In this document: positions 5,222 to 59,528 of the stretch, one piece after another
Position numbering within the stretch: position 1 is the stretch's first letter
Layout of the letters: the number at the start of each line of letters is the position of its first letter
From: Dakarella massiliensis
GTDB lineage: Bacteria > Pseudomonadota > Gammaproteobacteria > Burkholderiales > Burkholderiaceae_F
Reading direction: 5' to 3'
DNA length: 64,000 bases
Assembly: GCF_001182045.1 (NCBI RefSeq)
Contig: NZ_CVTY01000006.1
Coordinates: 356,086-420,085, forward strand
The notes under the pieces: generated by a model
What the model saw: only the letters and a program-made list of their open reading frames with translations
Told to the model about the DNA's origin: nothing
Database searches by the model: none
Position numbers and translations under genes: made by a program

Positions 5222-7096
<1,875 letters not shown>

Positions 7097-7224
7097 TTAT
7101 AGGCGGCGAGAAAGACGGAGGGAATAACAGCCGGTATGCAGGGTGGGGTCTTGAGACGTCTCTCAAAAAGAACGCCTTCCGGGAGTTCTCTTAATTCCGG
7201 AAAGCGTCCCGGCTCCCGCACCGC

Positions 7225-7332
7225 TGCATATTCGTTTCCCTCCGACGGTATCAGCCGCATCAGGTTCCACGGGTGTTTCTCAATCAGGAACGCGTTTTAG
7301 TGACAGGCCGCGTGCCCTGATACCCCGAACGT
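7225..7332 (-). ncRNA. TPP (THI-box) riboswitch controlling thiC
   Basis: Minus-strand RNA CGGGGUAUCAGGGCACG...UUGAGAAACACCCGUGGAACCUGAUGCGGCUGAUACCGUCGGAGGGAAACG matches the THI element core (CUGAGA...ACCC...AACCUGAU..GG.UAAUACC.GCG.AGGGAA). Confidence 0.75.
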
Positions 7333-7385: not shown

Positions 7386-8069
7386 TTACTCGTTTCGCCG
7401 CGAGACGAGCCGCCTGATCGAGCGGTCGTGAATCCCGGTGAGGAAGAGCATCGAGAAAACCGCGCCCACGAGGCACCACGCCATGTCTTTCTGCGTGTCC
7501 CAGGGGTCGCCCTGCGTGCCGAGGAACGCGTCCGCTTCCTCGTGAATGATTTCGGCGGTTGCCCACTCGAAGATTTCGTAGAGCGCGGCGATCGAGAGAC
7601 ACACCGTAATCGAGAAAAACGCGGCCCAGGCTTTAGAGCGGGCGGCGCGCGTCCGGAGGATGATTTCGCGCGCGATGATCGCGGGGAACGCCCCTTGAGC
7701 GAAGTGACCAACCTTGTCGTAATTGTTCCGCGCGAAGTGAAGCGGTCCCTCAAGCCACGTGAAGAGCGGGACTTCCGCGTACGTGTACTTCGCGCCAATA
7801 AAGAGGATCACGCAGTGGATCGCGATGAGCGCGTAGCAGAAGCGAGAGAAGCGGAATTTCCCCCAGGTGAGGGCAAGGAGCGCGAAGCCAATCAGCCCCG
7901 GCGTGCATTCGAGCCACCAGGTGAGTCGGTCATGCGGATTGATGCCGGACCAGACGAGCACGGCGAGCCAGATGGCGAGCAGCACCGCGTGGAACGTCGA
8001 AAACCGTTCCCCCATTCCTTTTTCGTACCAATCCATAAGCCGGACTCCTTTTCCGTCGAATCGTATCAC
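7386..8069 (-). CDS. Polytopic inner-membrane protein (DUF2238/YjdF-like, tentative)
   Basis: Several hydrophobic helices. The family assignment is from memory only. Confidence 0.4.
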   Translation of the reverse strand: MIRFDGKGVRLMDWYEKGMGERFSTFHAVLLAIWLAVLVWSGINPHDRLTWWLECTPGLIGFALLALTWGKFRFSRFCYALIAIHCVILFIGAKYTYAEVPLFTWLEGPLHFARNNYDKVGHFAQGAFPAIIAREIILRTRAARSKAWAAFFSITVCLSIAALYEIFEWATAEIIHEEADAFLGTQGDPWDTQKDMAWCLVGAVFSMLFLTGIHDRSIRRLVSRRNE

Positions 8070-46332: not shown

Positions 46333-46791
46333 ATGACGAAAGCCCCGATTTTCGAGATCAATGATTCAGACGGCAAGCCCTTCAAGATGGAAGATCACTT
46401 CCCGATGGTGCTCTACTTCTACCCGAAGGACAGCACCTCCGGCTGTACTACAGAAGCGAAGGAATTCACCGCTCTGATCCCGGAGTTCCAGAAGCTCGGG
46501 TACGACGTTGTCGGTGTCTCGCGTGACTCCGAAAAGAGCCACCAGAACTTCATCTGCCGCTACACCCTCGCGATCACGCTCCTCTCGGACCCGGAAGAAA
46601 AAGCCTGCAAGGCGTACGACGTGATCAAAGAGAAGAACATGTACGGAAAGAAGGTGATGGGCGTTGTCCGCAGCACGTTCCTGATCGATAAAGACGGAAA
46701 CCTCGTGAAGGAATGGCGGAAGGTGAAGGCGGCTGGCCACGCCCAGGCGGTTCTCGACTTCATTAAGAATCCGGAAGCGGCCAACGCCTGA
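46333..46791 (+). CDS. bcp: Thiol peroxidase Bcp (AhpC/TSA peroxiredoxin family)
   Basis: YFYPKDSTSGCTTEA peroxidatic Cys motif. CAGGAG SD 6 nt upstream of the ATG at 46333. Confidence 0.85.
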   Translation: MTKAPIFEINDSDGKPFKMEDHFPMVLYFYPKDSTSGCTTEAKEFTALIPEFQKLGYDVVGVSRDSEKSHQNFICRYTLAITLLSDPEEKACKAYDVIKEKNMYGKKVMGVVRSTFLIDKDGNLVKEWRKVKAAGHAQAVLDFIKNPEAANA

Positions 46792-47023
46792 CCGTAATCA
46801 GTCCTGATTCAAACAGAAACCCGGAGGGTTCTTCAAGAGAGCCGTCCGGGTTTTCGTTTGCGTAATGACAGGATTCGTGCGGAGCCCGCGAGTAAGAGGC
46901 TTTCTGAAAAGTAGCGTTATTCTCATCTTTTGTTTTTGCTATTACATAATTTCACGACTTAGAGTTGCTTTGTCGTTTGTTGTAACTTAATGATTTAACG
47001 GCGCTATCCAAAATTATTAAAGG

Positions 47024-47500
47024 GTGTTTAATAATTTTGACGCTGATAAATACGCAAAACATAATGAAAAAATAAAAAATAGTTATTTTAGTAGTACGGA
47101 AAATAGAACCCCCCATTCTTGTATAATTGGCCGTCAAGATTTTGTCAAAAGCTCTCAGAAAAAAATGACGATTAATGTTCAATGCGTCTACGGGGATGAC
47201 GACATCGAGAATGTCAGAAGCTGCATCATTCCGAATCTTGCTGCTGCCACAAAGGAAAAAGTCATATTTCTGACAATGAATTACGACGCTGCCGGCAAAA
47301 GGCTTGACTCCGGGGATCCGTATGGCTGCGAAGTCTGGGATATTCCGAAGACATCAGACGGTCGGACAGGCTTTGATGAGGAAATCACCACGTTTGAAGA
47401 TTGGTATCTTCAGATGCTCGCTTTCCTGACTTTTGGTGGGCCGGGCGGCAGGTATAAAGAGAGAAAGAGGAAATATCGGGAAAACTTTCGAAGACTCTGA
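47024..47500 (+). CDS. Hypothetical protein (start uncertain; possibly 47165 at MTINVQ)
   Basis: ORF at the edge of the low-GC island with no recognised motifs. Confidence 0.3.
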   Translation: MFNNFDADKYAKHNEKIKNSYFSSTENRTPHSCIIGRQDFVKSSQKKMTINVQCVYGDDDIENVRSCIIPNLAAATKEKVIFLTMNYDAAGKRLDSGDPYGCEVWDIPKTSDGRTGFDEEITTFEDWYLQMLAFLTFGGPGGRYKERKRKYRENFRRL

Positions 47501-47630
47501 AATGATAAGAATTGTCAGCTTTGATTAGTGGCAAGGCATTTCAACCCGCACTTGGTATCTTCCAAAGTTGATCTCCAATATGCAACCAGTAGGGATTATT
47601 TCCCTAGTTGAATTAAAAGATAGCCGCTAA

Positions 47631-49520
47631 ATGAAAAGACTCGCTTTTTATACTTTTTGGGAAAAAGATGGCATTGTCAGAAAATATGTCTTCACGTACC
47701 TGAAAGGCCTTCAGGAAGTTGCGGACAAAATTATAGTTATTGCCAATGGGAAACTTTCTTCCGAGGGTAAAGAGAAGCTTGAAAAGCTAGGCGTTACCGT
47801 CTTGCAGCGAGAAAACAAGGGATTTGATTTTGGGGCCTGGAAAGCCGCTTTTGAGTTCCTTGGCTGGGACGAAGTACTGAAGTTTGATGAACTGGTACTC
47901 ACAAATTGTAGCAATTATAGTCCTGTGTACCCTTTCTCTGGAGTTTTTAGGAGAATGGAAAATAACCTCTGCGATTTTTGGGGTCTGACACAGCACCAGG
48001 AGGTGAAAAACGCCCTAATCATTGCGGGAGACAAAGACTCTTATATCAGACGGCACATTCAGTCTTTCTTCATAGTAATCAGACAGAAAGTCATCCTGTC
48101 TGAAAAGTTTTCCTCTTACTGGGCTGACCGTGTTGAGGCAGAGAACCTGAAACAAGAGATCTGTGAACACGAAACAAAGTTCACAGAATATCTGGAATCT
48201 GCAGGATTCAGCTGGGATACTGTATTTAAGCCGAAGGGAGAATTTAATCCCAGTTTTTATCAGGCAACAGAATATATAGATGCAGGATATCCTTTGGTGA
48301 AAAGGAAACTTTTTAATTCTCCTTCTTTTGTTTGGACCGATCATACCAGAGGAGATACACCCAGTAAGGTACTTGAAAAGCTTGAAAAACTTGATTATCC
48401 AGTCGACGAAATATTTGAGGATCTTCTTGGAACCAGCTGTCTAAGCGTATTGAATAGGGATATACATTTTAATAAGTTTATTCCTGACAATTCCAGTGAA
48501 GATATTGATGATGTGCTGAAGGATAAGAAAATAGCGGTTGTGTTTTTTGCGTATTATCCTGACATTGCAAGCAGGTATCTGCCTTACATTCTGAATCTGC
48601 CAAAAACAGCGCATATTTGCTTAATTTCTACTAGACAGGACACTTTGGATTCATATTCTGAACTGTTCAGGAAATATGATCTCGATTTTGAGTGTCGGAT
48701 TAAACCTAATAAGGGACGCGATTTTGCGGCGTATTGTATTACAGCAAGAGATATTTTTGATAAATATGATTACATTTGCTGTGTAAAAGATAAGAAATCC
48801 CCTCAGATTTCGTCTCTGATAGCGGAGTCTTTTGATAAACAGTGTTGGGATAGTGTGCTCTTTTCCAGAGATTATGTTAATAACTGCCTCCGGCTGCTTT
48901 ATGACAACCTCTCCGCAGGCATGATTTTTTCTCCTCCGCCTAACTTTGGTCCTTACACCTCGGTTGGAAATGAGATGAGCCATAATGAGGAGCATATTTC
49001 GTATCTATGGAAAGAGTTGAAACTCCGCATTCCAAAGGAGGAAAGCGAGTTGGTTGCTCCTTTTGGTTCTATTTTTTGGATTAAAAGCGCCACCGCAAGG
49101 ACACTGCTTCCCCATAATTGGACATATGAGGAGATGCCGCCTGAACCAATTGGACCGGATGGAACGCTTCTGCATGGTTTAGAAAGAATATGGGCGTATG
49201 CCGCTCAGAATGATAGATTTTATCCAGTAATTGCAATGCCTATTTCGTTAGGAGAAATTTATTACGGGGATGCTCTTCTGCAGCTGAGAGATCTTAATGC
49301 GGCTTTATTCGAAAAATATGGAATCAACTTGCATAGACGTTTAATTGATTTGATCAGAACGCCTATAGAGCCTGTTAAGATTACGGCTATAAAAGAGCCC
49401 GCCAAAAATATTTCGATTAAGAAAATCGTCAAGTACCGTCTGATGGCAAAAATTTTTCACGGAAATAGAAGAAAACATTATGAGAAGAAGCTCACCAAAT
49501 ATCTTGCAAAATTTGCCTGA
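47631..49520 (+). CDS. Rhamnan-synthesis protein F (RgpF) family glycosyltransferase
   Basis: N-terminal AFYTFWEKDGIVRKYVFTYLKGL...IIVIANG and a two-domain layout of about 629 aa typical of RgpF/WbbX-type rhamnosyltransferases. GC about 34%. Confidence 0.7.
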   Translation: MKRLAFYTFWEKDGIVRKYVFTYLKGLQEVADKIIVIANGKLSSEGKEKLEKLGVTVLQRENKGFDFGAWKAAFEFLGWDEVLKFDELVLTNCSNYSPVYPFSGVFRRMENNLCDFWGLTQHQEVKNALIIAGDKDSYIRRHIQSFFIVIRQKVILSEKFSSYWADRVEAENLKQEICEHETKFTEYLESAGFSWDTVFKPKGEFNPSFYQATEYIDAGYPLVKRKLFNSPSFVWTDHTRGDTPSKVLEKLEKLDYPVDEIFEDLLGTSCLSVLNRDIHFNKFIPDNSSEDIDDVLKDKKIAVVFFAYYPDIASRYLPYILNLPKTAHICLISTRQDTLDSYSELFRKYDLDFECRIKPNKGRDFAAYCITARDIFDKYDYICCVKDKKSPQISSLIAESFDKQCWDSVLFSRDYVNNCLRLLYDNLSAGMIFSPPPNFGPYTSVGNEMSHNEEHISYLWKELKLRIPKEESELVAPFGSIFWIKSATARTLLPHNWTYEEMPPEPIGPDGTLLHGLERIWAYAAQNDRFYPVIAMPISLGEIYYGDALLQLRDLNAALFEKYGINLHRRLIDLIRTPIEPVKITAIKEPAKNISIKKIVKYRLMAKIFHGNRRKHYEKKLTKYLAKFA

Positions 49521-50130
49521 CAGAGGATCGGTGCTGATGAAATCATAGGTTCAGTCGTTTTTGACTGCTTTAAAATAAGTCAGATTCACTGACATTCTCG
49601 GCGTAGCTGAACTGATTGGCACCGCTCTTATGATGCCGTATGCCCTTGGTCTTACATTTGGAGCTCATCATCTCAAGGAATTTTGGAGCTGGAAGAATGT
49701 TTTTTCATTTTGCTCACATTCTTTATGTTGTCCTGCCGGGGAGTGACGCGCTGTTTGATCGATTCGATCAGAGGATATTAAGTATGTGTTTTTGGTCAGA
49801 TCCACTAAGTGCAAGGAGCCCAGAATCATAAAAGGGGACTTCTTTTCAATCAAGATTTCCTGGAGGCTGTCGATTTTGATGAGATTTAATAAAAGTTTTC
49901 CTATAATTACACCATACGCATCAATCGCATGCCAGGTCTGACTACCTAAATTCCCGCTCAGATAGCTTATTTTTATTTATAAAATTAATAGATCTGGGTT
50001 AAAAGTACAGATAACATATCGGGAATTTAGGCTATAAACAGCGTTGCTAATAGTGATACTTGTGATTTTTTATTCCTATTTTAAATAAAATTCGGGGTTT
50101 CAACGTGATTGCAAGAGAGCAGAGTCCTGA

Positions 50131-51261
50131 TGCAGACCATAAAATTGCGTAGTAATACCGACGTATAAAGCAAAGAAGCATATATTAGGTGTAATTGATA
50201 GGATCGGCCCTGAAGTTGACAGAATTTATGTTGTAGATGATTGTTGCCCAGAAAATTCAGGAGCATTTGTCGAAAAAAATTGCTCTGATCAGCGAGTTTC
50301 TGTTATTAGAAATAGTGTAAATCAAGGTGTTGGTGGAGCTGTGATGACAGGGTATAGAGCGGCTCTCAAAGACGGAATCGATATCATTGTTAAGATAGAT
50401 AGTGATGGGCAGATGGCCCCCGCATTAATAATTGATTTTGTTGGTCCTATAGTAGACGGAGAAGCAGATTACACTAAGGGAAACAGATTCTTCGAATTAG
50501 AGAAGGTAAAATCCATGCCAAGAATCCGACTGATTGGGAATGCCATTCTCTCTTTTATGTGTAAGCTATCATCTGGATATTGGAACCTATTTGATCCTAC
50601 GAATGAATTTACCGCCATACATGCTGATGTAGCACGTCGGTTGCCTTTTAATAGTATAAGTAAAAGGTATTTCTTCGAAAGCGATATATTATTCCGTTTA
50701 AATACACTGAGGGCCGTTGTGATTGACATCCCAATGGAAGCTAAATATGGAGATGAGATAAGTAATTTAAAAATTTCTAGAATAGTCGGTGAATTTTTAG
50801 TTAAGCATTCAAAAAATTTTATAAAAAGAATTTTTTATAACTATTATCTGAGAGATATGTCCTTGGCATCGATTGAGTTGCCGGTCGGTCTATCACTCCT
50901 GCTATTTGGAACTATATACGGTATATATCATTGGGTACACTCCACGACACTGGGAATTACGACTCCAGTTGGAACAGTAATGATCGCTGCCTTAACTATT
51001 CTGATGGGAGTTCAACTGGTGCTGGCATTTCTGTCTTATGATATAGCCAACATTCCTAATAGACCTGTTCACGTCCATAATCACTATAAAATAATGGCCA
51101 ATAATCGATTCTTTATTTATATTTTAGTCGGTATTATCTGTGCCGTAATCGATATAGGGCTGATGGGACTATTAATCCATCAACACATAAATTATTTTCT
51201 AGCGGCTACTATTGGTTTTTTGCTGGATTTATTGTTAATTATTTTTTACATACTAAGATAA
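50131..51261 (+). pseudogene. GT2 polyprenyl-phosphate glycosyltransferase (GtrB/ArnC-like) with N-terminal frameshift near 50150; reading frame runs on into the GtrA-like gene
   Basis: ATG CAG ACC ATA AAA TTG (MQTIKL) at 50131 is in frame +1 relative to the ...VVIPTYKAKKHI...VDDCCPEN...DSDGQ body. One extra base near 50150 restores MQTIKLVVIPTYK. The body has two C-terminal TM helices. Confidence 0.6.
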
Positions 51262-51458
51262 CTTTTAGATCAACACTTTCCAACGAACATTTATTTAAAT
51301 ATTCAATAGTTGTAGCAATTAACTATCTATTAACTCTGATATTTACCTATATATTTGAACAATTTTTTAATCTGCCGATGATGGGGAAGATAATATCTTT
51401 ACCGGTTGTTGCTGTAAATGGGTTCGTCTTATTAAATTATTGGGTTTACTGTAAGTAA
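51097..51458 (+). pseudogene. GtrA-family small membrane protein with frameshift near 51255
   Basis: MANNRFFIYILVGIICAVIDIGLMG...ATIGFLLDLLL in one frame, then KYSIVVAINYLLTLIFTYIFEQFF...VAVNGFVLLNYWVYCK* in the +1 frame. Together these give four TM helices of a GtrA fold. A T6 homopolymer lies at the junction. Confidence 0.45.
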
Positions 51459-51524
51459 ATATATTTAATTTTTATATTTATTTTTTTGTATTAATTATTA
51501 GATGCCGTAAAAGCAACAGCAAAA

Positions 51525-52907
51525 ATGTTCAAATTGACTTCCGAAAAGAAAAATTGGCTTATTCTCGCCATTCTATCAATAGGATATTTTTTCCTATCTT
51601 CAGTCATCCCTCCTCTCATGTCGCCTGATGAACCAAATCATATTGAAAGAGCCTATCTCCTAGAAAAAGGTGTAGTTGTATTGGACAGAAAGGAAGGGAA
51701 TTCAAGCGGCGGATATATTGACACAGGTCTATTGGATTACCTTGGCTACTACAATCCGTTTCAGAAGAAACTGCAGCCAGAAATGATTCATAAGGCGGAA
51801 AAAATTAATTGGAGTGGAAATCGGGTGTACGCAGAATTGCCCGGTACTGGATATTATTTTCCTGCTGCTTATACTCCCCAGGCTCTAGGTCTCATGCTTG
51901 GGGAAAGTATTGGACTAAATATTGATCATTCGTATCGTCTTGCTCGCTTATTTGCTCTGATGGCGATAATCTTGATTCTTTATCTTTCCTTTAGGCTCTT
52001 TTCGCCAAATGGCATAGTGCTAGCAATCCTGGCTCTGCCCATGACTATTTTTCAAATGGCATCTGCAAGTTTAGATGGTATTTGTATTGCTATTACAGTT
52101 CTAGCGATATCAGCCTTTATGCGAATATCAAAAGATAAAAACGCCACTTCTGACAGTATTCAATATGTACTGGCATTATCAATTGCTATCCTTGTTACAA
52201 GCCGTCCAAACACATTGCCGATGCTTTTGTTGCTTGGTGCTTCAATTTTTTATATCAAGAATAAGAAATCAATATTTCTTTTTATACTGACAACATTATT
52301 CATTGGGATATGGACATTGCTGTCATTAAAAACCACAGTCGATTTAAGAGTAACTTTAGGACATTCATCATCTAGCATAATTTATTATTACATAACACAT
52401 CCATTTGACTTCATTAATGTTGTTGGGAATACCTTATCTAACGAACAAAATAGATCTTTTTATTTCAAATCATTTATTGGAATTTTGGGTTGGCTTGATA
52501 TCCCACTAAGCGATAAATATTATAAAATCATCTCAATTTTGTTTTCTATAATAGTGCTTTTATCTGTTTCTCTAAAAAATATTAATAATACTTGGAAGCC
52601 AAGATTTCTGTTGTTTATTACCTCAGTAGCAACTTTATTGCTTGTATTTTTTGCTATGCTAGTTACATGGACTCCTCATCCTGCACATCAGATTCTTGGA
52701 GTTCAAGGAAGATATTTTTTGATACCAGCTATTTTGTTTGGATATGCGATATCAAATAATATAAATTTTTCAAATAATATCCGTACAAAAGAAATCCAAT
52801 TTTTATTATTATTCTTTTTATTGTTGCTGTTTATTCTTCGATGCATTTCACTATTAATCGTTATTTTTTATGTACCGGCCCCATTGATCACAGGACACTT
52901 TCTCTAA
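51525..52907 (+). CDS. Polytopic membrane protein, DUF2142-like (polysaccharide-associated, tentative)
   Basis: At least 12 TM helices and an N-terminal PDEPNHIERAY motif. Follows the RgpF/GtrB/GtrA genes. GC about 30%. Confidence 0.55.
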   Translation: MFKLTSEKKNWLILAILSIGYFFLSSVIPPLMSPDEPNHIERAYLLEKGVVVLDRKEGNSSGGYIDTGLLDYLGYYNPFQKKLQPEMIHKAEKINWSGNRVYAELPGTGYYFPAAYTPQALGLMLGESIGLNIDHSYRLARLFALMAIILILYLSFRLFSPNGIVLAILALPMTIFQMASASLDGICIAITVLAISAFMRISKDKNATSDSIQYVLALSIAILVTSRPNTLPMLLLLGASIFYIKNKKSIFLFILTTLFIGIWTLLSLKTTVDLRVTLGHSSSSIIYYYITHPFDFINVVGNTLSNEQNRSFYFKSFIGILGWLDIPLSDKYYKIISILFSIIVLLSVSLKNINNTWKPRFLLFITSVATLLLVFFAMLVTWTPHPAHQILGVQGRYFLIPAILFGYAISNNINFSNNIRTKEIQFLLLFFLLLLFILRCISLLIVIFYVPAPLITGHFL

Positions 52908-53357
52908 CCTAAAATTTCTTTAGGGGAAAGACTATAACAATCATGAAAAAAGAGGGAACTTTAAAAACTCGTCCTACGACCAGTCGTAGAATTAGTTTGC
53001 CAACGGACAAGAGGGTCGGTTCATTATGAGCTGTACCCTGGCAATACATTTGAGTTTGGAACCATGGTTCCTCTTCTTGAAAAACTGAAGAATGTATGTC
53101 ATTGCTTACCTTCTCTGAAACTCTGGTAACGCGATCAGAAAGATGATTGCGCCACCGAACGGATGGATGTGCCGCATTCATCCGGTGGCGGAGAATACAG
53201 ACGTCAGCCTATATTGCATTTCACTGAGCGAGTGTCAGGCGCAATGATAAATTTTCTGCATCCCTTCATCGACTACTCAGAGTGACTCGATCTGGGAATA
53301 GGCAGGTAAGCTATAGAAGCTCTCTATTCCCGATGCATCCTTTTTCCAGGCGTACGC

Positions 53358-53681
53358 ATGGCTGACACTGATAAAAAACCGACTGAAACCCCGAAACCGG
53401 CAGATAATCCAAACCCCTTTGCCGCTAACTGCCTCTGGGGCGGGGTGTACGCGTTTGCCGCTTTCTTTCTCGGGCAGCCGCAGTACCCAGGCGGCTATAT
53501 CGGTGTCGCGGCGTTCTTTGTGATCGGTTTCCTTTGGAATCCGGCCCGGTTGAAGAAGGGACAGAAGACAAAGATAGAAAAGGAGTGGGAGTCCGCGAAA
53601 GAAGCTCTGCTCGACGATTCAAAAGAAAAGACTTCAGACACGGATGAGAAAGAGAAGGTCTCCCCGACTGATAAACCCTGA
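53358..53681 (+). CDS. Small membrane protein with acidic/Lys-rich C-terminal tail
   Basis: Two hydrophobic helices (LWGGVYAFAAFFLG, IGVAAFFVIGFLW). Confidence 0.4.
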   Translation: MADTDKKPTETPKPADNPNPFAANCLWGGVYAFAAFFLGQPQYPGGYIGVAAFFVIGFLWNPARLKKGQKTKIEKEWESAKEALLDDSKEKTSDTDEKEKVSPTDKP

Positions 53682-53706
53682 CCCCTAAAGACAAGGAGTT
53701 CCTCTG

Positions 53707-53910
53707 ATGACGATGAGTGATGAAGGACGGAAGATCTGGAACAGCCCGGCAGGCGTTCACCTTCTTAAAACCTGGGGGCTCGGAACCGAAGAAACGCCAG
53801 AAGACCGGGAGACGATCAATCGTCTGAAGGAACTGAACCGGAAGCGGGGGATTGTGCCGGGAAACGCCGCGGCGGATAAGAGCGGCCGCGAGCCTGACTC
53901 GGATAAATAA
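53707..53910 (+). CDS. Small hypothetical protein (67 aa)
   Basis: ORF between the two membrane genes, same strand. Coding status uncertain. Confidence 0.3.
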   Translation: MTMSDEGRKIWNSPAGVHLLKTWGLGTEETPEDRETINRLKELNRKRGIVPGNAAADKSGREPDSDK

Positions 53911-53929
53911 GCGATTCGGGAGGATTCCC

Positions 53930-54679
53930 ATGACGAAACCGAGTGAACCGACAGGCTGGCGATCGATCGAACTCTATAACAAGATCACGCTTGGGGTCGC
54001 TCTTCCGGCGTTCGGGAAGGCGGCCTGGAAACCGTTTCTCGTCGTTTCTCTCATCCTCATTATCTGTAAGCAACCACCTTACAGTGATATGGGGATCACC
54101 CTCATCCTCGGCGCGCTGATTTTCTACGTGATTCCGGGGTATCTCAGGTTCGTTCGGGACGCGGCCGGCAGTCCTGACTTCCGCCGGAACCCCAAGGCGG
54201 CTTTGGAAGAGGCGAATAAAGTGGCTTCGAAGATCCTCCTTCTCAAGGAACTCGAATCCGGGCAATTCAAGGCGGAAGGCTGGAAAGAGGGGGACCGGGA
54301 AGCGTTTCTCATGAGTGACCGCGAGGTGGTGAGGGACGCGGAACTCATCCGTGACCCTAATCACCCGACGGATCCCTTTGCCATCGCCTGCGTCTGGCGG
54401 GGAAAGACGATTGGGTACCTGCCGCCCTTTGTTTCCCGGTTCCTCGGCCCCACGATGGATAAAGGACTGCGGCTTAAAGCCTCCATTCATGGCTGGCGGT
54501 CAAGGGAGAAGCCGGGGCTTGCTGACGTCGTTGTCCTTCCAAAGCCTGTTGATTGGAAAGATCAGTCAAAGCTCGACCTTGTCTTCGCAGATATCCGAGG
54601 CGCTTACTATGAGTCTGGGCTTTCGGCGAAGGCGTTCCGCGAGAGTTTTAAGCGAACCGGTCTGGAGACTCCCCCTTGA
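53930..54679 (+). CDS. Membrane-anchored HIRAN-domain protein
   Basis: GGGAGGA SD 7 nt before the ATG at 53930. Two N-terminal TM helices. The C-terminal region IRDPNHPTDPFAIACVWRGKTIGYLPPFVSRFLGP matches the HIRAN signature (NpyDpnAI.V....G..iGYlP). Confidence 0.55.
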   Translation: MTKPSEPTGWRSIELYNKITLGVALPAFGKAAWKPFLVVSLILIICKQPPYSDMGITLILGALIFYVIPGYLRFVRDAAGSPDFRRNPKAALEEANKVASKILLLKELESGQFKAEGWKEGDREAFLMSDREVVRDAELIRDPNHPTDPFAIACVWRGKTIGYLPPFVSRFLGPTMDKGLRLKASIHGWRSREKPGLADVVVLPKPVDWKDQSKLDLVFADIRGAYYESGLSAKAFRESFKRTGLETPP

Positions 54680-54771
54680 GATAACCTCCAGTCTCTGGCT
54701 TTTCATCGCCCGATAAAAAATGCCGATCTCTTTATTGAGACCGGCATTTTGGCTCCCGGGCGCTTAAGAGC

Positions 54772-55767
54772 TTACCTGTTGTTATATGGGAGCTTCTTGC
54801 TTGAGACGAGCGCCTTATGGTCCGCCTCAATAATAAACGGGTGGATCGCGGCCCAGGTCTCGGGGAAATTATCGATAAACGCGGTGTGCCACGCCTTCGG
54901 AACCACGCAGAGTCGCGAATTCGGAAGCATCTGATGCGCTTCGAGCACCGTGATCACCGGCGCGTGGTCATCTTCATCCCCCACAATCAGGAGCACCGGA
55001 GCTTTCACCGCTTTGAAGGTTTCGGCTCCGACCGACATCCGGCTCCAGAAATTCATGTAGTTCGTGAGGAACTCCTGCCAGCGACCCGGTTCCGGCATCA
55101 GTTTCAGCTGCTGCTCGACAAAGGCGTTATCGATCTTCCGGAGGTCCGAGACCTTGAGACCCGGCTTGAAGTACCCGGGTTTAAGCGTTCCCGCGCCGAT
55201 CGCGACGATCCGGTCCACAGCTTTCGGCTCCAATTTCGCCACTTCGTACGCGGTGTACGCCCCGTCGCTGAACCCAATAATCATCGCGGGTTTCCGGGTG
55301 ACCGCGTGCATCACGGCTAGCATGTCGCGCCCCTTCTGCTCGTACGTGATCGGGGAGTGTCCGATTTCAGACCGCCCGTGGCCGCGCGTCGACACCACAA
55401 TCACCTCGTGGTTCGGACGCAGATGGTCGATCAGTGTCCCCAACTCGTAGGGAGCGCCGACACCGCCCCCGTGGAAAACAAACACCGGCGTTCCGGTCTG
55501 AGGCGTCCCGTAGATCTCGTAATAGATCTTCGCGTCACCGGCCTGCACCGTGTGACCAACCGACGGATTATTGCCGTACGGGGTTTGGCTCGCGGCAGCG
55601 CCTGGCTGCTCCGTGAACCAGCGAAGTGGTCCCTGGGTGCCGGTGTGAGCCGCGGAGACAGGCCCTTGGGATGGCGACCCGGGGAAAGCCGACACCGCGG
55701 CGTATGCCGCGCCGGATCCAAACGCCAGTCCCGCGATCATCGCGGAAAACAGCAGATTTCTCATCAT
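54772..55767 (-). CDS. Secreted alpha/beta-hydrolase
   Basis: Signal peptide, HGGGVGAP and GFSDGAYTA nucleophile elbow. Confidence 0.75.
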   Translation of the reverse strand: MMRNLLFSAMIAGLAFGSGAAYAAVSAFPGSPSQGPVSAAHTGTQGPLRWFTEQPGAAASQTPYGNNPSVGHTVQAGDAKIYYEIYGTPQTGTPVFVFHGGGVGAPYELGTLIDHLRPNHEVIVVSTRGHGRSEIGHSPITYEQKGRDMLAVMHAVTRKPAMIIGFSDGAYTAYEVAKLEPKAVDRIVAIGAGTLKPGYFKPGLKVSDLRKIDNAFVEQQLKLMPEPGRWQEFLTNYMNFWSRMSVGAETFKAVKAPVLLIVGDEDDHAPVITVLEAHQMLPNSRLCVVPKAWHTAFIDNFPETWAAIHPFIIEADHKALVSSKKLPYNNR

Positions 55768-55986: not shown

Positions 55987-56658
55987 TTATTTGTTCTTGC
56001 GGATAAAGAGGCAATAAACAAAGCACAGAGCCATGATTACGAGAATCACCAGCATGAAGCCAAAGGCGAGCTCGCAGCACTGAGCCATGCTCATAAACTT
56101 CCACTTCGGAATCAGATACCAGGAGTCCGAGCTGTTGTACATATCGATGAACCACTGCTGGAGGCTCGAAAGCTGTGTACCGTCAGGAACCACCGCGAGG
56201 TCGTACCCGCAGTCTCCAGTCGGCTTGAACCAGTCAGGAGCCCACTGGGCGAGCGGGAGATCAAACGGATAGTGAGGATCCGTCGAGCAGCCCTGCATAC
56301 CGAACATCGCGGTCGGATCGTCACTGTGAATAGCATGATGGATAGCCTCAAGCTTCACAGAACACTTAAGACCGTATATCGCGCCGGCAAAAGCAAAGGC
56401 ATAGCCCAGCACCTTCAGGATCAGGTTTTTTGGATTGATAACGCAGATCAATCCGCCGATCGCCATCACCAGAAAGCCGAATCGGATGTAAACACACTGT
56501 TCACAGGGTGCCATGTAAAGCCACACCTGGAACATGTAATGCGCAACCAAAACCAGAAGGACGCAGACTGCGGCCATCAGAACCCAGGGCCAGCGCATAT
56601 CCTGCCAGTCTGCAATTGCGCCGACAGGATCCTTTTTCAAATGATCAAACCAGGACAT
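55987..56658 (-). CDS. dsbI: DsbB-family disulfide oxidoreductase, DsbI-like
   Basis: Membrane protein with an [10 protein letters not shown] CxxC loop. Downstream of assT. Confidence 0.8.
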
Positions 56659-56753
56659 TTTTAGTCTGCCTAAAAATCTGCCCTGCCAATAGGCGATACC
56701 GGCAGGGCAGCCGGGGAGCCTGTGAGAAGATTCTCTCAGGCTTCCTCAATCAG

Positions 56754-58595
56754 TTAATGAACCTTGCTGTTAAAGGCCTTTTCAGGATCAAAAACGATTG
56801 CCTGATAGCCTGTCGTCGAATGGAACTGGAGTTCCACGGACGGCTCCTTGGCACCCCACTCAAATTCCTCGAGATAGGGGTTCGGGGCAGATACGAGACC
56901 GCCGGTCTTCAGGTCATAGTTAGCACCGGCCGTAGCGGAGTAGACGAGGACAGAATTCTTGTCCTTCATGTACTTCACGAGAGAGGTAACGGGGCTGAAC
57001 CAGCCATGGCCGCGTTCCTTGCCGTACTCCCAAACCTGTTCAACCGTGCGCTTGTTCTGATCGATCTTATAGATCACCGCGCGGCTGTACTTCTGAGAGG
57101 GAAGGGCGGGCTGCTCAAAGTGGCGGGCATCGCCGTTATCGAACACGGAGAGCCAGAAGGTGTTCTTATCGGACATCTCGTCGATACGGAAGGCCGTGTG
57201 CTGCGTGAAGGTCCAGTCGAAGTTCGTGTCGTGGCAGACATATTCATCGCAGTCGAGTTTCTTGCCGTTCTTATCAACCGGGGTGAGAAGCAGATCATGG
57301 TAGGGCTTCTTCCAGCCGGCGCCACCGCCCAGAATCCACTTCACCTTGTGATCGCGGCCGATCTTGATGACCGCGCACTGGTGACGGGACGAAATGATGA
57401 TGGAGTCGTCCGTCGGGTCATAGTCGACAGAGTTCACGTGAGCCCAGTTGCGGCCAGGGCCAGTGCCGACGATGTCGCCGAAGTTTCCTGCTTTATCGAG
57501 CTTCTGCAGTTCCTCGGTAGTTACCGTCTTGCCGGCGAGGCTTGCGTCAATATTCAGGCAGACAGCGCCCTGATCGAGTGCCTTGATGGCGACATCGCGA
57601 TACGGATCAAGAATTTCCCAGAGACGCCACTGATCAACCACCTGACCATCCTGGTTCACTTCAATAATCAGGTCGCGGACCGTGTGCACGTTGCGGCCAT
57701 CGGTACGTTTCAGGTTGGCAGATGCCACACGAAGGAAGTAGTGACCGTTCTGGGCAGCGTCCATTGAGTGGCTGAAATCACTGTAGGCGAAGGGGAGACG
57801 ACGGTTCCAGACTTTACGGCCCATGATGTCGTACTTCACATAATGCTGACCGTAACCCCAGGTGAGAGCGCCGTCATCATTCTGCTGAACGCCCATCATG
57901 ATGCCGCCGTTCCAGAGGGAGTTCACATCAAAAATCGGATCAGCCTTGAGGTACCAGCGGATTTCACCCTTGGTATCGGTAATCCAGTTAATCGGGTCAG
58001 AGGACCACTGCAGCGCGCCGCCTTCAGGGCTGTTCCAAACGGCCTTTCGAGTACCGCCGGCAACACCGCCAATGTTATTCACGTAGTACAGACGATTCGC
58101 AAACTTCCCGGTTGCGGGCTTAATGACAGTCGTCTTCGGGAAAATGGCATTTTCGCTCTTGGAGCCAGCCAGATCACGCCAGGCCGGAGGCGCGTACATC
58201 TGATAGGTTTCGTCGAAGTGTTCCGTCTTATTGTTCCAGATACGGTCGTAACTCACCTGAACATGGTTGACGTGGTCCGGGTACAGACCGAAAACCGGGA
58301 TGCCGCCGTGAGTCATCACCTGGCTGTCGGACACGTGATAGGCGATTTCCTGACCGCCGGTCTTCGGGACGATGCGGACGCGGACATTCTTCAGCACATA
58401 GCCGCCGTCATGAATGATGGCGGTGAGCGGCGCGATCTTATACGGATTCATTTGAATCTCGCCGATATGACCCTGAACCTTATAGATGGTCTTAGCGCCG
58501 GACGGACCGCCAAAAGCGAAGGCGGCCGTCGGAAGAGAAATGCCGGCTGCTGCGGCGATGGTCATTTTGTACAGCTGACGACGGGTGATACTCAT
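56754..58595 (-). CDS. assT: Periplasmic arylsulfate sulfotransferase (ASST) with Tat signal
   Basis: MSITRRQLYKMTIAAAAG twin-arginine leader. About 600 aa ASST family. Flanked by dsbL and dsbI as in the described assT-dsbL-dsbI units. Confidence 0.85.
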   Translation of the reverse strand: MSITRRQLYKMTIAAAAGISLPTAAFAFGGPSGAKTIYKVQGHIGEIQMNPYKIAPLTAIIHDGGYVLKNVRVRIVPKTGGQEIAYHVSDSQVMTHGGIPVFGLYPDHVNHVQVSYDRIWNNKTEHFDETYQMYAPPAWRDLAGSKSENAIFPKTTVIKPATGKFANRLYYVNNIGGVAGGTRKAVWNSPEGGALQWSSDPINWITDTKGEIRWYLKADPIFDVNSLWNGGIMMGVQQNDDGALTWGYGQHYVKYDIMGRKVWNRRLPFAYSDFSHSMDAAQNGHYFLRVASANLKRTDGRNVHTVRDLIIEVNQDGQVVDQWRLWEILDPYRDVAIKALDQGAVCLNIDASLAGKTVTTEELQKLDKAGNFGDIVGTGPGRNWAHVNSVDYDPTDDSIIISSRHQCAVIKIGRDHKVKWILGGGAGWKKPYHDLLLTPVDKNGKKLDCDEYVCHDTNFDWTFTQHTAFRIDEMSDKNTFWLSVFDNGDARHFEQPALPSQKYSRAVIYKIDQNKRTVEQVWEYGKERGHGWFSPVTSLVKYMKDKNSVLVYSATAGANYDLKTGGLVSAPNPYLEEFEWGAKEPSVELQFHSTTGYQAIVFDPEKAFNSKVH

Positions 58596-58689
58596 ATTGT
58601 TCCCCTTTGAATTGTTTCGAGACAAAGCTTCCCCTACCCTGAGGGGATGATTCCCTCAGGGAGAAAAGCGAACTGCGGAGAAAACTGAA

Positions 58690-59355
58690 TTACTTTTTCG
58701 CGAGGACTGCGATCAGATTCACGAAGCCATCAATGCTCTGAATGTTCTTCGTCATGATCAGCCACTTGCCGTTGACGACGTAGGCCGGAATGCCCTGGAT
58801 CTTCGCGACGTCATAGACGGGCTTCCAGGAATTGGCGAGAGCCTGAACGGCTGCCGTCTTGCGTTCCTTCGCGAATTCATCGGCAGAAATGCCAGTGGCT
58901 TTCGTCATGGTTTCGATGAAGGCGCCTTCTCCCTTGGTCCAACGTTCGGAGTGACGGTGATAGGCCTGATAGACAGCATCCTTGGCTTTCTTGAAGAGCG
59001 AGTCCTTGGCTTCAAGAGACCGGCCGGCTTTCTTATCCATCAGGATGCACATGGCAAAGAATTCAGACGCGCAGCGTCCGTACTTGCCTTTGGTTTCCAG
59101 ATGACGAGGCTCGAATTTCAGACCGAGCTTTTCGATTTTCGGGATAGCGGTCGGGTCAACGCCAATGTCGTAGCGGAAGCAGAACGGGCAGTCATAGGAA
59201 AAAACCTTGATGACGGTGCCGTTAGCGTTAGCGAGCGGCTTGGCGAGTTTGACGTAATCGGTGCCTTCTTTGAAATCGGCAGCAAACGCGACAGCAGGAA
59301 CAGCCGCAGCGAGAGCGGCGGTTAAAGAAACTTTGAAAAGTGAACGACGCTGCAT
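58690..59355 (-). CDS. dsbL: DsbA-family periplasmic thiol:disulfide oxidoreductase, DsbL-like
   Basis: Signal peptide, CPFC active site, thioredoxin fold. GGAGAG SD before the start at MQRRSLF. Confidence 0.8.
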   Translation of the reverse strand: MQRRSLFKVSLTAALAAAVPAVAFAADFKEGTDYVKLAKPLANANGTVIKVFSYDCPFCFRYDIGVDPTAIPKIEKLGLKFEPRHLETKGKYGRCASEFFAMCILMDKKAGRSLEAKDSLFKKAKDAVYQAYHRHSERWTKGEGAFIETMTKATGISADEFAKERKTAAVQALANSWKPVYDVAKIQGIPAYVVNGKWLIMTKNIQSIDGFVNLIAVLAKK

Positions 59356-59528
59356 ATTCTCTCCATTCATTGATAAAAGGACTATTTGTCCCTGATAAGA
59401 AAAATGTAGTCGTTCATGATTTGAAAAAAATAGAGAATTTCAATGGGTGTATTCTTGTTTTTTGCAAATCAGAGTTCTTGTGATTCTAAAGTATTAGTTC
59501 TGTAGAACTATTTTTGTAAAAAATTCAA

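Follow-up and report, generated by a model that had tools for sequence, protein, structure and literature searches.

To our knowledge, the HIRAN domain of eukaryotic fork remodelling is well understood, whereas the stand-alone HIRAN proteins of bacteria and phages, though many, have no assigned function. Here, we analyzed a three-gene cluster (g1, g2, and g3; positions 53358–54679) in a 64-kb stretch of DNA from Dakarella massiliensis, referred to below as the window. The last gene, g3, encodes what we call a 2TM-HIRAN protein, that is, an N-terminal two-helix membrane hairpin (TM, transmembrane) plus a HIRAN domain at the C-terminus. The three proteins are deposited as WP_022444858.1 (g1), WP_022444859.1 (g2), and WP_022444860.1 (g3), from Dakarella massiliensis and also from Sutterella sp. 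CAG:351. In RefSeq, g3 bears the name “HIRAN domain-containing protein,” and the domain annotation is thus already public; the membrane-anchored architecture and the context of mobile elements and paralog arrays appear undescribed. The searchable literature gave no relevant report of a membrane-anchored HIRAN or of a HIRAN in superinfection exclusion. We tentatively propose, with somewhat less than even confidence, that each 2TM-HIRAN protein is a module on its own and that its target is foreign DNA at the inner membrane.

Structures are available for the HIRAN domain of HLTF and Rad5 (PF08797; PDB 4xzg, 4s0n, and 6l8o). Unlike these proteins, g3 has neither a SWI/SNF helicase nor a RING domain, and its HIRAN domain is predicted to be held to the membrane by two helices. 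Within the domain, Glu and Thr replace Y72 and Y93 of HLTF, and the N-terminal β-hairpin region is swapped for a short strand and a helix. Stand-alone HIRANs, such as lp_0118 of L. plantarum (PDB 3k2y) and gp253 of Bacillus phage G, are soluble proteins of ~80–130 amino acids without the membrane hairpin, linker helix, and C-terminal helix extension of g3. A first-pass annotation of this DNA had considered a membrane-localised DNA-end sensor with no enzymatic partner unusual. The lack of such a partner is in itself nothing unusual for a HIRAN, as bacteria and phages often have small HIRAN proteins that stand alone.

Membrane superinfection-exclusion proteins of temperate phages include P22 SieA, T4 Imm, lactococcal Sie2009, and HK97 gp15. 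They are small inner-membrane proteins encoded by independently oriented prophage cargo genes, and they act on incoming DNA, which fits the setting of the distant g3 homologs described below. A relation of these proteins to g3 in sequence or fold is not expected, and the copy in the window is chromosomal rather than on a prophage. We know of no superinfection-exclusion protein with a HIRAN or other DNA-end-binding domain.

HipN (PADLOC PDC-M03B) is a HipS-like plus HIRAN putative antitoxin of HipI (HipA-family) kinases in a candidate defence system (PMC13245101, PMC8262856). It resembles g3 in its length of ~250 amino acids, its C-terminal HIRAN domain, and its place in a predicted conflict system. 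The PDC-M03B profile matched g3 at residues 108–191 (E 2.6e-5), and the g3 paralogs scored better. However, the match is confined to the HIRAN half (profile positions 131–214 of 250), and where HipN has its HipS-like domain, at the N-terminus, g3 has a hydrophobic hairpin. Among the open reading frames (ORFs) that we scanned for families between 46258 and 60482, none is a HipA-family kinase gene, and PADLOC gave PDC-M03B matches only. With a match to the HIRAN half only and no HipA partner, the g3 locus was rejected as a PDC-M03 (HipI–HipN) system. A further described gene, t3415 of S. Typhi, is a 741-nt prophage HIRAN cargo gene that scored as required in a transposon library analyzed by transposon-directed insertion site sequencing (TraDIS) (PMC3632133); its length class is like that of the 2TM-HIRAN proteins.

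The g3 protein and its membrane hairpin

The g3 gene (53930–54679, + strand) encodes 249 amino acids. Its ORF as listed opens at a TTG (53852), but we place the true start at the ATG at 53930, because a GGAGG lies 7–11 nt upstream and database orthologs all begin MTKPSEP (241–249 amino acids). The protein carries a true HIRAN domain, a β-barrel flanked by helices (residues 112–206, positions 54263–54547), followed by a C-terminal helix at residues 209–229. Pfam PF08797 matched g3 with an E value of 7e-6 at 26.2–26.4 bits, a narrow pass over the gathering score of 24.7, and the match is partial (profile positions 27–77 of 96). All 10 sequences of a family alignment made of g3 and its paralogs matched PF08797, the best with an E value of 4e-13. 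NCBIfam and PHROGs gave nothing meaningful for g3. Searched against the PDB, the family profile matched chains of the HLTF HIRAN and of Lactobacillus lp_0118 (E 3–5e-4). The AlphaFold2 (AF2) model of g3 has an overall predicted local distance difference test score (pLDDT) of 77, with residues 141–240 mostly at 86–96 and a dip to 63 in the block 191–200. Foldseek aligned this model to HLTF HIRAN structures (probability 1.0, E 4e-4), and the top matches among viral models were likewise HIRAN proteins. The HIRAN signature that the first-pass annotation had recognized in the last protein of the cluster is confirmed.

Kyte–Doolittle hydropathy with a chosen threshold gave two hydrophobic segments in g3, residues 30–46 and 56–72, separated by a 9-residue loop (hairpin at residues 30–72, positions 54017–54145). 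The AF2 model has helices at residues 10–31, 33–46, 53–79, and 88–110, all before the barrel. The earlier proposal of two N-terminal TM helices tethering the HIRAN domain agrees with both results. The outer flanks of the hairpin bear Lys and Arg while the loop is nearly neutral, and five paralogs have an equal layout. Because of these positively charged flanks and the short neutral loop, the positive-inside rule would place both termini of g3, and hence the HIRAN domain, in the cytoplasm. In this arrangement, g3 would be an inner-membrane protein with a 33-residue cytoplasmic N-terminus, a two-helix hairpin, a linker helix of ~40 residues, and a cytoplasmic HIRAN domain just under the membrane.

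Pairwise identity among g3 orthologs is 94% over the N-terminal 33 residues, 87% over the HIRAN domain, and 72% over the hairpin, which is the least conserved folded part of the protein. Residues 1–33 (53930–54028) are thus the most conserved part of g3, where model confidence is low, and they could be an interaction motif.

Distribution and mobile-element context

A word-indexed search of 5.8 billion clusters with g3 returned only orthologs, all of them 76% identical or more. When 1.84 billion representatives were searched exhaustively with a HMMER profile, 25 matched at E ≤ 1e-3. Only three of these (P0011, P0012, and P0014) combine a TM segment with a HIRAN domain; the others align over the HIRAN core alone, and most of them are short. 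The named sources of 2TM-HIRAN proteins are Dakarella massiliensis, Sutterella sp., and Parasutterella excrementihominis (P0012 cluster), all Sutterellaceae. To date, this very small family is known from Sutterellaceae and the mobile elements of these bacteria alone.

Two out-group genes lie in mobile elements. In Parasutterella, P0067 (loci L113–L116) is alone on the + strand amid 6.3 kb of genes on the − strand. The surrounding island, inserted beside ispB and rplU, encodes an integrase, a small terminase (Terminase_4), a Phage_capsid protein, and a 975-amino-acid DUF927 primase that PHROGs also recognized. Phage satellites typically carry such a set of genes, and we regard the island as satellite-like. 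The second gene, P0065 (P0011 cluster; L117), is the sole + strand gene within ~9 kb of − strand genes and lies between PolA and an SNF2 helicase. Its contig carries a CI-like S24 repressor, Cro, a PD-(D/E)XK nuclease, and an Enc34-type single-stranded DNA-binding protein, and PHROGs added a Rha-like regulator and a polymerase. Because of these repressor and phage genes, we assign the contig, by gene content, to a temperate phage. Lone, oppositely oriented genes at such sites are typically independently expressed cargo. P0067 and P0065 are mobile-element cargo oriented in this way, whereas the locus of g3 itself is a variable part of the chromosome that has no phage genes.

Searches of viral collections with other members of the family reached HIRAN cores. 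P0012 matched only those of Bacillus phage G gp253 and of Streptococcus prophages in the phage collection, and in IMG/VR the family alignment gave nothing but small HIRAN proteins of a generic kind. Two of the IMG/VR matches (L016 and L018) have a single N-terminal TM helix and are co-directional with their neighbours in a possible structural module.

A profile search of genome contigs with the paralog alignment gave 80 loci, nearly all from Rhodocyclales, which were considered as an extension of the 2TM family and rejected, as they are not 2TM-HIRAN proteins. These loci (L033–L112; for example, L033 at 6890–7255 and L084 at 6824–7237, Candidatus Accumulibacter phosphatis) encode a conserved HIRAN protein, mostly of ~121–137 amino acids. 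It is carried by dozens of species, among them members of Dechloromonas, Azonexus, Accumulibacter, and Rhodocyclus. Many of the proteins inspected start with a Sec-type signal peptide (for example, MRFLPTLSLLAWLGCAQA/EGVR) and have intact canonical GSQYY and REPDNRHD motifs. The Rhodocyclales protein thus appears to be a HIRAN that is exported, an odd destination for a domain that binds DNA ends.

The paralog array at the Dakarella locus

In the sister loci L007 and L001–L004, the order is bcp, HIRAN-A, g1, g2, g3, HIRAN-C, and hydrolase, with HIRAN-A of 247 and HIRAN-C of 305 amino acids in L007. Across sister strains, one to two further 2TM-HIRAN paralogs flank the cluster, and never an enzyme. 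The suggestion that the cluster is a fragment of a larger system therefore survives in the form of these extra paralogs, but not in the form of an enzymatic machinery. Homology between g3 and HIRAN-A (L001, 6691–7428) extends over the HIRAN domain and the C-terminal helix (hhalign probability 99.2%, 31% identity), and HIRAN-A has a long acidic linker. L010 and L011 are arranged differently; among other changes, an arylsulfotransferase (ASST) gene is duplicated, and part of the g1 5′ end occurs as an extra copy. In L010 (4309–6916 and 10579–13644), the second ASST gene and a 221-amino-acid neighbour stand between two 2TM-HIRAN paralogs and split the copy of the g1 5′ end.

The window has neither HIRAN-A nor HIRAN-C, and g3 is the sole HIRAN gene in its 64 kb. 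Aligned with L001 and L007 by blastn, the window loses homology at 46781 and regains it at 53266. The 6.5-kb interval between has a GC content of 29–42% and lies exactly where the other strains have HIRAN-A (a 245–247-amino-acid paralog). The cluster itself has a GC content of 50–58%, and its placement at the edge of an island in the first-pass annotation is therefore correct. Identity to L001 and L007 is 85–89% for the cluster, 96% for the left flank, and 92% for the hydrolase, with 92–97% for the flanks overall. What lies between bcp and the hydrolase varies by strain. The arrangement with g3 as the only 2TM-HIRAN gene is the common form in D. massiliensis, where the exact g3 protein is indexed in 948 collection blocks and the paralog was absent in 8 of the 8 places shown. 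On a further D. massiliensis contig (L121, 1123–4245), an ISL3 transposase and a mercuric-reductase-like gene replace the left part of the island; this insertion confirms the locus as an insertion hotspot. The Dakarella chromosomal locus may be seen as a variable hotspot with diversified paralogs in an array, and the window would retain one of these paralogs.

The low-GC island (46792–53265, + strand) encodes RgpF (47631–49520), a 306-amino-acid multi-TM ORF with no Pfam match (50341–51261), and a DUF2142 membrane protein (51525–52907), and the stretch 49521–50340 has no long ORF. It is probably a surface-polysaccharide modification cassette. A repeat search around it found short, chance-level repeats only and no clear att-like direct repeats. 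The neighbours of the cluster in the window are nrdAB, bcp, this sugar-modification island, the hydrolase, and an ASST gene with DsbB-like and DsbA-like genes. The ASST gene is flanked by the latter two and lies just right of the hydrolase (55987–59370).

The proposed foreign-DNA role and its rivals

We favour a role against foreign DNA for the 2TM-HIRAN proteins because they are rare, occur on a phage and a satellite, vary in copy number in a hotspot, and have a precedent in HipI–HipN. Such a protein could work by exclusion, in which the ends of incoming linear DNA would be captured or blocked, or by abortive infection, in which DNA-end detection would be coupled through the hairpin to an effect on the membrane. 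The first-pass annotation had offered an anti-phage or a DNA-uptake role. Support for the former is indirect and comes from the out-group homologs, as lone opposite-strand cargo on a temperate phage and a satellite-like island, while nothing points to DNA uptake. A broader claim, possible but doubtful in our view, is that these proteins form a new class of single-gene modules against phages and other mobile elements, in which a DNA-end-binding domain at the cytoplasmic face of the inner membrane would intercept the free 3′ end of injected linear DNA, or trigger the hairpin once it senses such an end, and the chromosomal arrays would have arisen from an arms race with phages and satellites.

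Several findings weigh against this role. The mobile-element argument comes from only two out-group gene clusters. Scans of IMG/VR with g3, P0065, and P0067 found no relatives, and g3 had no match by tblastn in the phage and plasmid collections, from which the two out-group genes are likewise absent. Near the cluster in the window, there are no defence genes, no integrase, and no phage genes. The exported HIRANs of Rhodocyclales mean that the fold is not tied to cytoplasmic DNA. Finally, both base-stacking residues of the HLTF pocket are replaced in g3.

In HLTF, D94 reads the 3′-OH, and the two terminal bases are gripped by Y72 and Y93 (PMC5773155). Pocket residues of g3 were assigned by a MAFFT alignment with HLTF and bacterial HIRANs. 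In this alignment, the HLTF sequence upstream of Y73 is provisional; the Y93/D94 region was confirmed by the PDB profile match. D148 of g3 aligns with D94 and is nearly invariant (at least 90%) across a 30-sequence alignment, and g3 also keeps N144 and the REP/DPN motif. In place of Y72 and Y93, g3 has E120 and T147, the equivalence to Y72 being the less certain of the two because g3 carries an insertion at that place. The same two positions are Phe and Tyr in HIRAN-A and His and His in the Parasutterella protein P0067. HIRAN-C has lost the Asp too. W118, adjacent to E120, is invariant in g3. With both stacking tyrosines replaced, 3′-end binding by g3 cannot be assumed: g3 is a divergent HIRAN in which canonical binding is not assured, and such binding may be lost in these paralogs. 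Of the 3′-end sensor in the first-pass annotation, the catch for the 3′-OH is therefore retained in the sequence, and the aromatic pair is not.

These substitutions suit an alternative that we consider unlikely though credible, namely that the HIRAN fold of g3 was re-purposed. Its ligand would be a protein or something other than DNA, or it would serve solely to partner or regulate the canonical paralog HIRAN-A, and g3 in the window would be an orphaned leftover with another membrane role. E120 and T147 have replaced Y72 and Y93 (PMC5773155) in g3, while HIRAN-A and the out-groups keep Phe or His at the first position and Tyr or His at the second. Furthermore, the N-terminal 33 residues are more conserved than the HIRAN domain, signal-peptide HIRANs show the fold working outside the cytoplasm, and HIRAN-A is missing from the window. 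However, D148, N144, and the REP/DPN motif are retained, and the invariant W118 could stand in for the aromatic clamp. g3 is also under purifying selection, and an orphaned leftover is hard to square with the g3-only arrangement being the common one in D. massiliensis.

It is also rather improbable, in our estimate, that g1, g2, and g3 form one functional system, such as a membrane complex in which the small proteins would gate or antagonise the HIRAN protein, in the style of a toxin–antitoxin or a sensor–effector set. The cluster layout speaks for it. g1 (53358–53681, + strand) encodes a small membrane protein of 107 amino acids and g2 (53707–53910, + strand) a soluble protein of 67. The order is fixed, and the genes are spaced by 25 nt (g1–g2) and 19 nt (g2–g3), with the ribosome-binding sites AAGGAG before g2 and GGAGG before g3. 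A promoter and terminator scan found no terminator-like site between the three genes. After g3, between it and the convergent α/β-hydrolase gene, lies a strong hairpin with an A-run and a U-run (54717–54750). Its RNA fold has an energy of −36.5 kcal/mol (z = −5.1 against shuffles, with 0 of 200 shuffles equal), and a simple terminator scan left it unflagged. It is likely a bidirectional terminator closing the g1–g3 operon. A single operon is likely from these sequence features, that is, the short gaps with ribosome-binding sites, the uninterrupted interior, and the strong hairpin after g3.

Pairwise dN/dS of the window genes against three sister loci was 0.08–0.17 for g1, 0.09–0.24 for g2, and 0.17–0.34 for g3, with 0.07–0.19 for the neighbouring hydrolase. 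All three are therefore genuine protein-coding genes under purifying selection, as the first-pass annotation had taken them to be. Its description of g1 as a two-TM protein held in part: a hydrophobic hairpin spans residues ~21–60 ahead of a Lys/Asp/Glu-rich, putatively cytoplasmic tail, but only the second segment (44–60) reached the TM threshold. The first 52 residues of g2 are invariant among orthologs. Its AF2 model has three short helices at low confidence (pLDDT 65, predicted template modeling score 0.31). No family in Pfam, NCBIfam, PADLOC, or PHROGs matched g1 or g2.

The gene order g1–g2–g3 is kept in every relative examined, which counts for the three-part system, but all of these relatives have a g3 at least 76% identical. 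Because it is seen only among such near relatives, this synteny is uninformative beyond shared descent. Homologs of g1 and g2 are restricted to close relatives (Dakarella/Sutterella-type loci), and neither gene was found by tblastn beside the out-group 2TM-HIRAN genes in 118 loci, so the three-gene system proposed in the first-pass annotation finds no backing from synteny. In-frame deletions in sister strains shorten g1 to 82 amino acids (L001, 7503–7751) or 90 (L010, 8001–8273). The 82-residue form has no Lys/Asp/Glu tail, and the 90-residue form lacks about half of the hydrophobic hairpin, with the deletion between two AAFF motifs; g1 thus tolerates the loss of either. The L008 contig has g1 and a truncated g2 with g3 absent. 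Truncated or deleted forms of g2 are present in metagenome contigs. We also considered g1 and g2 as decayed pieces of a 2TM-HIRAN paralog and rejected this, with hhalign probabilities of 19% and 0.8%. They are lineage-specific small proteins, probably co-transcribed with g3, and any link to g3 is conjectural.

Upstream of g1, a scan of the + strand for sigma-70-like promoters gave no candidate, with counts no better than in shuffles. The conserved stretch upstream of g1 (53266–53357, + strand, defined by blastn) can form a hairpin at ~53292–53333, and its fold is no better than that of shuffled sequence. In relatives, this stretch comprises the final ~20 nt of a paralogous 2TM-HIRAN gene and a 75-nt spacer before g1; by blastn, window positions 53266–53583 align with L001 at 7409–7728 and with L007 from 3697. 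Rfam had no match over 52700–54900. Among the scanned neighbouring ORFs, there was no match to nuclease, helicase, or kinase families, in keeping with the earlier statement that the HIRAN protein has no enzymatic partner.

A role serving the mobile element itself is quite unlikely. Here, the protein would act at the membrane to shield or place the ends of the element's own DNA, for example against host exonucleases or in replication and packaging, and the chromosomal copies would be domesticated remnants. The out-group genes do lie inside the replication modules of the phage and the satellite, and many phages carry small HIRAN proteins. However, in both elements the gene is opposite in strand to the replication genes, which is more typical of independent cargo, and the Dakarella locus keeps and multiplies the paralogs without any other phage genes. 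Although fork remodelling is the eukaryotic HIRAN paradigm (PMC5773155) and housekeeping genes (nrdAB and bcp) stand nearby, a housekeeping role in the DNA metabolism of the host, for example in repair or in tethering replication intermediates to the membrane, is very improbable given the extremely narrow distribution, the differences in copy number and presence between close strains, the higher dN/dS of g3 than of the neighbouring hydrolase, and the homologs on mobile elements.

The action on foreign DNA that we favour can be put to the test with one gene. A HIRAN domain pinned to the inner membrane, which a temperate phage and a satellite carry as lone cargo and of which a variable locus of the chromosome has several copies, offers a concrete and cheap test case. 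If g3 has no such role, it would be a lineage-restricted hypothetical protein of a common human-gut bacterium. If it does block DNA entry or is triggered by DNA ends, it would bring a new sensor logic to bacterial immunity, in which a free 3′ end is detected at the membrane, and would give a prokaryotic HIRAN its first function.

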